Shown here in pieces: positions 1-1,553 of a stretch of DNA of 11,326 nt. Made by a program: the position numbers and the translations under genes. Source of the DNA: Opitutales bacterium (lineage in GTDB: Bacteria; Verrucomicrobiota; Verrucomicrobiia; Opitutales; UBA9783); assembly GCA_046881885.1 (NCBI GenBank), contig JBKSMP010000004.1, forward strand, positions 1 to 11,326, read 5' to 3'. Under the pieces are notes generated by a model. The model ran no database searches and had not been told where the DNA came from. It saw only the letters and a list, made by a program, of their open reading frames with translations. Position 1 is the stretch's first letter. Every line of letters starts with the position of its first letter.

Positions 1-304
1 TAAGTTTGCGAAAAACTTTTTCTTTACAAACAGAAAATGGCTTGTTAGAATTGAAAAAGCAATGGAACTCTTAGCAAAAGTGCACGAAGCACTTAAAAAT
101 AGGCAGACAGTAGGTCGCCCGCTCTGCAAACATTCAAAAAATACTTGCAGACACAAAACATTGGACTTGGAAAACGAACACGACTTTTCTTCCCCTAAAG
201 AAAGGCCAAAACCCATTTGTTTATCTTAAAATACGTTAATTAAGACACTCATACTTTAGCTTTTTAACTCAACACGAACCTGTAGGATTATATATGAACA
301 CACC
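1..304 (+). repeat. Copy A of a ~300-bp direct repeat. The partner lies at about 11020..11326. It spans a small ORF, a 64-bp spacer and the start of the next gene.
   Basis: Hand alignment: 161..304 against 11183..11326 has 10 mismatches in 144 nt, and 198..269 is a 72-nt perfectly identical block. Upstream (about 5..160 against 11025..11182) similarity is weaker but clear, with shared strings tctttacaa, tagaattgaaa and gtcgccc. Confidence 0.9.
2..229 (+). CDS. Small basic conserved hypothetical protein. Its 5' end is uncertain: the frame is open to the window edge, and the ATG at 62 is conserved in the paralog.
   Basis: The frame is open from position 2 to TAA at 227..229 and reads ...KAMELLAKVHEALKNRQTVGRPLCKHSKNTCRHKTLDLENEHDFSSPKERPKPICLS. 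It aligns at protein level with the 11018..11251 ORF, sharing the tail LDLENEH-FSSP-ERPKPICLS. In that tail, 3 of the 5 nucleotide differences are synonymous in this frame (ttg/ctt Leu, cct/ccg Pro). It was too short or truncated to appear in the supplied ORF track. Confidence 0.45.
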   Translation, partial: KFAKNFFFTNRKWLVRIEKAMELLAKVHEALKNRQTVGRPLCKHSKNTCRHKTLDLENEHDFSSPKERPKPICLS

Positions 305-524
305 TTGCAAGATGCTTGCTATGGCATGGATGGCCCTCCGTCCATTTAGTACAAACGTCCATGCGGACAACATCAACTGGGAAGAAGTTTCGCACTTTTT
401 CAACTTCGACACTATTACCGAAAGAGAAAAACGAACGCATCTGGAAACGAACATCCGACTCCTCGTCGAAGAACAACTTAAGCTCCCCAGCGGCCAAAAC
501 CTCTGGAAAGCTTTCCAATTCTGA
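294..524 (+). CDS. Conserved N-terminal module of a paralogous gene family with a possible Sec signal peptide. It is probably the 5' part of one gene continuing to 1553.
   Basis: AGGA at 284..287 lies 6 nt upstream of ATG 294. RBS and start (ATGAACACA) are conserved at 11306..11326. The N-terminus MNTPCKMLAMAWMALRPFSTNVHA has signal-peptide-like n/h/c regions with VHA at the cleavage position. Samples at 301..400 and 501..600 are both 48% GC. It ends at TGA 522..524, in the same frame as 594..1553. Confidence 0.6.
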   Translation: MNTPCKMLAMAWMALRPFSTNVHADNINWEEVSHFFNFDTITEREKRTHLETNIRLLVEEQLKLPSGQNLWKAFQF

Positions 525-593
525 GAAAACCAACATCCGGACCTAGGCTTTCTGTTTGGGTTTACGTTAAGTTCAGGCGTTAGCGCCGGAGTT

Positions 594-1553
594 GTGCTCA
601 AAAATTTGAAAAATTCTACAGAAAATAAAGAAATACTTTGTTTTGAAGTAGTTATTAATAAGTTTTTTGCTGAAAAACTAGAGGCAGATCGGATCCTTAG
701 TGAAAATATGCTCTACCGGCCATGTTTAATAAAGTTGGTTGATTCTGATGATCCAGAAAAATGGGAATATCATCTCCGAGAACAGGAATTACCATTCTTT
801 ATAACGCTAGCACATGAGTTTTTACATGTGCTCAATCAGCTGGAAAAAATTGACTGGATCTTAGGAAGTTTAGGTATGCGAACAATGGAAGAGTTATTTA
901 TGAAATTGAATCTAATAAACGTAAAAGAATTCAATACTAACAATATCAATTTTAGACTTTTGTGTTTATTTAATAAAGGAAGGATAAATAAGAAAACTTT
1001 AAAAGATTTTGGTGATCAACTTAAGGAAAAGTTTAGTAATTACATAAAAAAAGAAATTTTATTTTCAATATTATTGGAAGCAATACTTCCTACTCAAACT
1101 TTTTTGGCCAAAAAGTTAAAATTGAAAGATGGTATTGATATTTTAAACGATAATTATTTAGATTTATGGGGCAATAAAGATAACGATGATTTTCTTGATG
1201 AAATGACGGTTATTTTACAAAGTAAACGAAGAATTTCTTTAGAGGAAGTAGTATATGTTGGTGAAACTATATTCTTGCAAGAATATTACCATGACGATTC
1301 TATTGTTTCTTGGTCTCATTATTCTGCAAAAGATAATGAGTTTTGGGAAAAAATGTATGTTTTGCTAGAGAAAAATTATGTAAATAAAGCATTGAATGGT
1401 TTTAAGCTAAAAAGCGGTGTTTTAAATTTAATACATGTTGATTATGCTATTGAAAAATTCAGTTATACACATTATAAGATAGGATATGGTGGTCGAAAAA
1501 GCACAAAACGCAAAATACAAAAATTTTTTCCTTTGATAATATGGAAAACTTAA
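594..1553 (+). CDS. HExxH (zincin-like) putative metalloprotease, an orphan or effector-like protein. The annotated GTG start is doubtful.
   Basis: A 319-codon ORF in 26% GC sequence, where chance ORFs of this length are unlikely. HEFLH is encoded at 813..827 in the context FFITLAHEFLHVLNQLE. There is no usable SD before GTG 594: GGAG ends only 2 nt upstream. The frame is continuous with 294..524 apart from one TGA. The C-terminus has a polybasic patch, RKSTKRKIQK. Confidence 0.6.
   Translation: MLKNLKNSTENKEILCFEVVINKFFAEKLEADRILSENMLYRPCLIKLVDSDDPEKWEYHLREQELPFFITLAHEFLHVLNQLEKIDWILGSLGMRTMEELFMKLNLINVKEFNTNNINFRLLCLFNKGRINKKTLKDFGDQLKEKFSNYIKKEILFSILLEAILPTQTFLAKKLKLKDGIDILNDNYLDLWGNKDNDDFLDEMTVILQSKRRISLEEVVYVGETIFLQEYYHDDSIVSWSHYSAKDNEFWEKMYVLLEKNYVNKALNGFKLKSGVLNLIHVDYAIEKFSYTHYKIGYGGRKSTKRKIQKFFPLIIWKT

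Follow-up and report, generated by a model that had tools for sequence, protein, structure and literature searches.

The DNA analyzed here (the window) is a complete contig of 11,326 nucleotides (nt) from an NCBI metagenome-assembled genome (MAG) labeled "Opitutales bacterium." Its left end carries an interrupted gene for a protein with an HExxH motif, preceded by a promoter-like element and a long leader and followed, on the opposite strand, by a small partner gene (Table 1). The housekeeping genes of the contig, which served as a compositional reference, are those for pyruvate:ferredoxin/flavodoxin oxidoreductase (PFOR), PrmC, L28, and a HAD-like protein. The loci used for comparison, numbered L, belong to further MAGs of uncultured Opitutales, including one obtained from a Hadza gut metagenome, or to assemblies from ENA and Logan. 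We are fairly confident that positions 294 to 1663 are a single gene of a small, lineage-restricted, multicopy family of putatively exported HExxH proteins in gut-associated Opitutales, and that this copy is a broken one and not a fusion of a GC-rich 5′ part (the head) to a foreign AT-rich cargo (the body).

Positions 294 to 1553 form one frame whose sole internal stop is a TGA. Translation bore out the original prediction that the open reading frames (ORFs) 294 to 524 and 594 to 1553 share that frame, with the peptide ENQHPDLGFLFGFTLSSGVSAGV between them. It was also right that a GGAG (588 to 591) lies 2 nt before the GTG at 594, although the first in-frame ATG is at 708 to 710 and not, as had been stated, at 709. 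Both the HEFLH motif and the basic patch RKSTKRKIQK were found as described. NCBI annotates the body as a protein of 315 amino acids (aa) starting at a TTG at 606 (P0001, MFQ6722868.1, ACLRFH_00480).

The proposal that the two ORFs are one gene split by the TGA was confirmed by an intact ortholog. Protein P0102 (456 aa) falls in the same 90% cluster as P0001 and is encoded on the ENA contig L012, from which window positions 417 to 2271 differ at only five sites (about 99.8% identity over 1,855 nt). At position 524 the window has A and L012 has G, so that a TGG (Trp) codon reads TGA. At 559 and at 1399 the window has G where L012 has A, giving Gly in place of the family-typical Glu and Gly in place of Asp, respectively. 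The fourth difference is a run of six Ts (T6) in the window against seven (T7) in L012, and the fifth (2002, A/G) lies inside the neighboring gene. The shortened T run is a second lesion, overlooked in the original prediction: because one T is missing, the frame shifts into a stop at 1551 to 1553 and the conserved C terminus is cut off. The tail runs on out of frame to a TAA at 1661 to 1663; it matches the C terminus of P0010 (E = 1e-8) and is the same as the end of P0102. Inspecting the stop codon in orthologs, as had been suggested, showed it to be sense there: it is TGG in L012, L001, L002, L003, L007, L008, and L009 and encodes Trp in all close homologs, and distant homologs have Leu codons at the site. 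The contig of P0078 (L011) spans only the partner gene and the end of the PFOR gene and thus gives no view of the lesion sites. The 76-aa stub and the 319-aa remainder, which has no start of its own, are not functional units.

Table 1. Coordinates of the disrupted gene and associated features in the window
Feature	Position (nt)	Strand	Basis
Promoter-like TTTACA-17 nt-TAGAAT, with TG before the −10 hexamer	23..51	+	Best match of the scan, 10/12 positions; putative function
Conserved leader, about 240 nt, with Shine-Dalgarno-like AGGA at 285-288	52..293	+	Repeated at 11040-11315
Candidate 55-aa upstream ORF inside the leader	62..229	+	Starts about 11 nt after the −10 hexamer; right copy at 11084-11251
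Interval with recombination breakpoint, window versus L012	293..417	.	74 differences across 54-416, 5 across 417-2271
Complete disrupted gene	294..1663	+	456-aa P0102 protein recovered by TGG at 522-524 plus one T in 1524-1529
Putative signal peptide MNTPCKMLAMAWMALRPFSTNVHA	294..365	+	Short hydrophobic stretch, then VHA
GC-rich head, 48% GC, 52-56% GC at third codon positions, most conserved DNA between copies	294..600	+	Composition, comparison of paralogs
TGA at conserved Trp codon (codon 77)	522..524	+	TGG/Trp in ortholog and close homologs
HEFLH within the most conserved block of the family, YHLREQELPFFITLAHEFLHxLNQLE	813..827	+	Alignment of 20-21 sequences
T6 run (T7 in ortholog), frameshift giving stop at 1551-1553	1524..1529	+	Alignment with L012
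Out-of-frame remnant of conserved C terminus, ending in ETPDGKREIFIQWNFAKIRTLPKYMIISK and a stop	1554..1663	+	Frame starting at 1472
Conserved partner gene, 225 aa, with N-terminal hydrophobic segment and conserved Cys, Trp, and Tyr	1804..2481	-	Homologs beside HExxH genes
Second promoter and leader, with first 11 nt (from ATG at 11316) of a further paralog truncated by contig end	11020..11326	+	Repeat comparison

The original prediction had offered recent inactivation, sequencing error, or readthrough as explanations of the TGA. The first two are the right pair, given the TGG or Trp of P0102/L012 and of close homologs, and readthrough is unsupported. We read the copy as a strain-specific dead allele because all four in-gene differences are disabling or nonsynonymous, which fits relaxed selection. 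Alternatively, both lesions could have arisen in the sequencing or assembly of the MAG, with the gene intact in the organism; we judge this rather unlikely, even though L012 is intact and otherwise nearly identical, one of the two lesions is in a homopolymer, and the MAG is fragmented at the repeat family. The end of the contig at 11316 to 11326, 11 nt into a paralog, and the starts of P0003 (inside the head) and P0008 (at an internal Met of the head) show that the assembly breaks at members of this family. Errors would nevertheless have had to include a G-to-A substitution, which is atypical for short-read consensus mistakes, and to fall so that every in-gene change was harmful or nonsynonymous, including the Gly residues at 559 and 1399, where L012 has a conserved Glu and an Asp, respectively. 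Further family copies are disrupted as well: in L005 the head and the body lie in two ORFs, and several short ORFs consist of a head alone and finish with out-of-frame residues.

Decoding of the TGA, whether by programmed readthrough, as selenocysteine, or under a reassigned code in which TGA is Trp or Gly, would explain why it sits exactly at a Trp codon and why the frame stays open for 319 codons more, and UGA is the stop codon most easily misread by tRNA-Trp. We consider this scarcely credible, since the stop is conserved in no homolog, close or distant, and the frameshift lesion would truncate the product anyway. Each of the 45 Trp residues encoded by the listed ORFs has a TGG codon, the ORFs at 1804 to 2481 and 7395 to 7895 terminate in TGA, and the homologs carry Trp, not the Cys that would point to selenocysteine. 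Neither the PFOR gene (1,175 aa) nor the genes for PrmC, L28, and the HAD-like protein contain an in-frame TGA; tested against the TGA-sense tables 4 and 25, the contig was found to use the standard genetic code. The lesions could also mark the OFF state of a population switch, with phase variation at the homopolymer or with cassettes of a recombining family silenced reversibly. The length of the T run does differ between near-identical strains, many family copies are broken, at varying points, and family copies recombine, but a run of 6 to 7 Ts is short for efficient slippage and frequent by chance in 25% GC DNA, slippage could not revert the TGA substitution, and neither an invertible nor a repeat-tract structure was found around the gene. 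Such a switch is therefore very unlikely. Whether as a dead allele, which we favor, or as an assembly error, the locus overall is an ordinary broken copy within an undescribed family, and ACLRFH_00480 should be annotated as a pseudogene (or as a corrected 456-aa gene) and not as a 315-aa protein starting from the TTG at 606.

Other copies of the gene are also split. The L005 copy occupies 3986 to 4291 and 4303 to 5292, with a frameshift between head and body. The L004 copy occupies 3 to 767 and 968 to 1585; its OTU-like C-terminal part is in another frame and has Ser at the position expected for the catalytic Cys. Disruption seems to be common in the HExxH family. The idea of a stop recurring at the same Trp codon in other truncated copies was rejected, as the short head-only proteins end elsewhere.

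The family is small: 21 matches were found among 5.8 billion clusters and, with a profile, 66 among 1.84 billion representative proteins. In all of the full-length relatives, including distant members at 32 to 39% identity, the N-terminal region is followed by the block MLYRPCLIKL...YHLREQELPFFITLAHEFLHxLNQLE, and none of the 66 profile matches was a long protein matching through the head alone. A head profile found only four loci in the GTDB representative genomes, including full-length HExxH genes and one fragment cut by a contig end, and had no match in a scan of JGI metagenomes. A literature search on Opitutales found nothing on this HExxH family. The intact relative P0002 was modeled with AlphaFold2 (mean predicted local distance difference test score [pLDDT], 75.6); residues 30 to 140 score continuously above 90 and are predicted to form two helices and a β-sheet leading into the HExxH helix (residues 168 to 192). 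The stop codon falls in a predicted helix and the GC boundary (about codon 102) in a predicted β-strand, neither of them at a linker. In the model, then, head and HExxH region form one continuous, confidently predicted stretch, and confidence does not drop at the GC boundary as it would at a linker. A product initiated at 594, 606, or 708 would lack the putative export signal and a third of this domain.

These observations bear on the claim, made in the original prediction, that the gene is chimeric: a GC-rich portable head for expression and secretion, acquired elsewhere, joined to unrelated AT-rich HExxH cargo and reused on various cargoes. The GC step is indeed abrupt, a leader with its ATG is duplicated at the contig end, and leader and 5′ head do move among copies. 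The same HExxH body, however, is attached in every full-length relative, the model gives head and HExxH region as a single confident stretch, and exchange was observed among homologous family members only; the search proposed for head modules on other 3′ regions found no unrelated fused body among the 66 profile matches. In a distant subfamily (L005, L006, and L010), moreover, the homologous head is AT-rich (23 to 33% GC), which argues that the head was not imported from a GC-richer source. We regard a portable head as highly improbable and return to a single gene. Its intact 456-aa form would begin with a signal-peptide-like N terminus and an N-terminal region running unbroken into the β-sheet and HExxH helix, and would end with a fast-evolving helical region followed by a short conserved C-terminal motif.

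Sliding windows of 100 nt reproduced the reported GC step near position 600, with 48% GC at 301 to 400, 48% at 501 to 600, and 26% at 601 to 700, and GC stays at 20 to 30% from 850 to about 2250. GC at third codon positions (GC3) is 0.56 for 294 to 524 and 0.23 for 594 to 1553. Compared with 0.32 to 0.37 in the housekeeping genes, the head is anomalously GC-rich and the body anomalously AT-rich. At the 300-nt scale, the step (0.153) is the third largest on the contig, and shuffles of 30-nt blocks give a maximum of 0.146 ± 0.020; on a contig this patchy, the step by itself is not statistically exceptional. Its weight comes from its recurrence at the same place in L002, L007, and L008/L009. Head GC3 is 50 to 58% in the window, L002, L007, and L008, 34 to 46% in L001/L003, where the step is weaker, and 20 to 28% in L005, L006, and L010.

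Composition follows conservation between copies. Across the cassette, the GC content of 100-nt segments rises with DNA identity to four homologous loci (r = 0.67); identity to paralogs is 80 to 95% at 300 to 500, intermediate in the HExxH core, and 45 to 75% in the variable parts of the body. The number of synonymous substitutions per site (dS) between clade members is 0.45 to 0.9 in the head and saturated, at about 1.3 to 1.8, in the body, although such estimates are rough and saturated in sequence of 25% GC, which tells against leaning on them. Constraint on the protein cannot make synonymous sites GC-richer than those of the housekeeping genes. A gene antisense to the head was rejected as the cause of the high GC3; the window and L002 have open antisense frames there, and L007, L008, and L001 have stops in theirs. 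RNA structure in head or leader is likewise unsupported, with folding z-scores of −1.49 and −0.43, respectively. In a consensus fold of six leaders the covariation term was slightly unfavorable (+1.11 kcal/mol), with compensatory changes in 3 of 29 pairs, and the leader had no Rfam match. We conclude that the step is clade specific, tracks DNA conservation between copies, and does not mark a fusion. Copies of one clade have stayed similar, and GC-richer, in the leader, in roughly the first 100 codons and the HExxH core of the gene, and in the 5′ part of the partner gene, and their variable parts have drifted to 20 to 26% GC. Repeated gene conversion, possibly GC-biased, would keep the head homogeneous and its GC3 above 50%.

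Leader and promoter also recur between copies. Both promoter hexamers are kept in every leader type (those of the left and right ends of the window, L002, L001/L003, and the second cassette of L007 [L007_B]), and the spacer varies. At the right edge of the window the duplication takes in the leader and 11 nt at the start of the ORF; the duplicated coding head of the original prediction was not seen, as the contig ends there. Positions 141 to 302 match 11163 to 11324 at 89%, within a similarity that spans about 20 to 302 against 11040 to 11326. L012 and L002 have almost the same leader as the right edge. The ORF inside the leader is open in both window leaders, L012, and L002 (with a 3-nt in-frame indel), broken in L001/L003, and partly open, with no clear start, in L007.

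The body of the window copy is nearly identical to that of L012, yet the L012 leader is of the right-edge/L002 type. The left leader of the window is almost identical to that of a different paralog, L007_B, of which the 5′ coding part matches L012 and not the window. P0003 and P0008, from the same MAG, are 92 to 96% identical over residues 25 to 190 and 32 to 55% identical beyond, as compared at the protein level, their DNA not being on record. P0006 is window-like and then, after the HExxH core, P0002-like. Since leader, head, and body are combined differently in different assemblies, the 5′ end appears to have been exchanged, and we conclude from these alignments that paralogs exchange leader, 5′ head, and body by homologous recombination with breakpoints in conserved tracts. 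The 5′ module of the original prediction does move, as the leader plus the first 120 nt or so of the ORF, by homologous exchange among family copies and not onto unrelated cargo.

Within the HExxH motif, E175 is invariant and H174 and H178 are nearly invariant in 20 to 21 sequences, and the motif lies on the predicted helix of residues 168 to 192. The nearly invariant E290 and E311 (P0002 numbering) are candidate third metal ligands. No Pfam or NCBIfam family reached threshold; below it were MPTase-PolyVal (1e-3), Peptidase_M91 (0.035), and Peptidase_M10 (0.21). Sequence profiles found no match in the PDB, and a Foldseek search with the model found none in the PDB or BFVD at E ≤ 1e-3. From the invariant HExxH and the weak subthreshold Pfam matches we infer metalloprotease activity, and the protein may be a secreted zinc-dependent hydrolase or metalloprotease. 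Distant members have clearly hydrophobic N termini at the place of the putative signal peptide, which suggests that the protein is exported. An OTU-like C-terminal domain is present in P0013, P0019, P0020, and P0021 and absent from the window copy and P0102. P0013 scores 22.5 bits against OTU PF02338 (E = 1.7e-4), below the cutoff of 23.3, and a VPxDGNCAF motif is present in P0013, P0019, and P0021. These domains hint at an interaction with eukaryotic cells.

Several points weigh against our reading of the locus as a dead copy of an exported, recombining HExxH gene. An assembly or sequencing error may mimic a true mutation, and the T6/T7 difference is of the kind typical of homopolymer errors. 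No significant family or fold match stands beside the motif to support the putative enzymatic assignment, and membership in the zincins is tentative. The hydrophobic stretch of the putative signal peptide is short in the clade of the window. The mosaics, finally, could partly be chimeric metagenome contigs joined across the repeated head; against this, the shared halves of P0003 and P0008 are similar and not identical, and L007 holds two different cassettes on one contig.

A homolog of the partner gene adjoins the HExxH gene in every locus examined (L002, L003, L005, L006, L007, L008, and L010), and P0086 (ACLRFH_03505) adjoins P0016 (ACLRFH_03510). The partner proteins, of 160 to 225 aa, form one homologous family; in the window clade their genes converge with the HExxH gene, and in the distant clade they lie upstream of it, on the same strand. 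On the L007 contig, HExxH cassettes at 1494 to 3005 and 4035 to 5696 flank a partner gene at 3050 to 3619 (minus strand). The partner gene has a GC step of its own, with a GC-rich 5′ end at 2250 to 2481 and GC3 falling from 50% to 20%. In L008 the N-terminal insert of the partner, NRIDVFYEGGPTLVAEGIDGVELP.ELSDPSHDLWDEYDPYVKF, recurs almost unchanged, and the remainder is about 55 to 64% identical. The partner had no Pfam or NCBIfam match, and its model (pLDDT, 78.9) had no significant PDB match. A role as inhibitor, chaperone, or cofactor would be a guess.

Elsewhere on the contig, an unrelated AT-rich ORF (30% GC) at 6275 to 7351 on the minus strand encodes 358 aa with an HExxH motif of its own (HEISH) and no Pfam or NCBIfam match. 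The C terminus of its product, NNCVIC, resembles the CaaX prenylation box of eukaryotes; such boxes occur in some effectors of intracellular pathogens. Divergent to it, at 7395 to 7895 on the plus strand and in the same low-GC island (6200 to 8000), lies a 166-aa ORF of 27% GC with a hydrophobic N terminus and no family match. An 89-aa ORF at 7991 to 8260 (minus strand) matches only the C-terminal part of Asn_synthase (PF00733, 267 to 341 of 354; E = 4.6e-8), and the DNA upstream of it is closed in its frame. It looks like a gene remnant and would fit ongoing gene decay in the genome.

A broader scheme is possible, and we put it forward as doubtful speculation. The promoter, leader, and head, together with the GC-rich 5′ end of the partner gene, might act as homology handles around a hypervariable interior. 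Recombination would then reshuffle a repertoire of exported HExxH proteins, some of them with OTU-like domains, and their partners, with conversion holding the handles at high GC and dead copies serving as reservoirs; with the CaaX-like protein, these might make up an arsenal of effectors directed at eukaryotes. Nothing here is surprising in kind. The family is undescribed and narrowly distributed; its genes are multicopy and mosaic and come with a partner gene, and no known family or solved fold matches either protein. The family and its pattern of GC and recombination are a modest but useful lead.

The family can be set beside several known systems. Like the zincins (including M91 NleD-like and MPTase-PolyVal), it has an invariant HExxH on a long predicted helix after a β-sheet, and the conserved acidic residues downstream, E290 and E311, could supply the third ligand; unlike them, it reaches no Pfam or NCBIfam threshold and has no PDB or Foldseek match. 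The secreted metalloprotease serralysin AprA is encoded together with a periplasmic inhibitor, AprI/Inh. The partner studied here has no sequence or fold similarity to known inhibitors, but the pairing of a putatively exported HExxH protein with a small, putatively exported neighbor is alike.

Polymorphic toxins of the Rhs or contact-dependent inhibition (CDI) type reportedly combine conserved N-terminal parts with variable C-terminal parts and an adjacent cognate gene. The original prediction invoked this logic, and its outline holds: the family is multicopy in one genome, the N-terminal half is kept while C-terminal parts diverge and recombine (P0003/P0008), a small conserved gene is always adjacent, and some members have an optional OTU-like C-terminal domain. 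It does not extend to the placing of the catalytic motif, as the candidate HExxH is in the conserved N-terminal part and not at the variable tip. The variable parts, moreover, are homologous variants and not unrelated toxin domains. The partner is convergent in the window clade, has a putative export signal of its own, and belongs to one homologous family across copies, and no Rhs, CDI, or secretion-system marker was seen on the 11.3-kb contig and the scattered loci. Terminal reassortment, which is said to have shaped type III effectors, was the other model invoked. As in that process, a 5′ regulatory region and the start of the ORF are exchanged between genes, but only among homologous paralogs. 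The unrelated cargo that defines it was not found among the 66 profile matches, and the N terminus resembles a Sec-type signal and not one for type III secretion.

In composition, the family resembles concerted evolution of paralog 5′ ends by gene conversion, a GC-biased form of which has reportedly been proposed for bacteria. This likeness rests on composition and dS, and selection at the nucleotide level could also act. The homogenized segments are GC-rich, with GC3 above that of the housekeeping genes and a lower dS in the head. In a genome of 25 to 35% GC, synonymous GC is elevated in the recombining 5′ segments alone, and the family offers a compact natural case for testing GC-biased gene conversion in bacteria.

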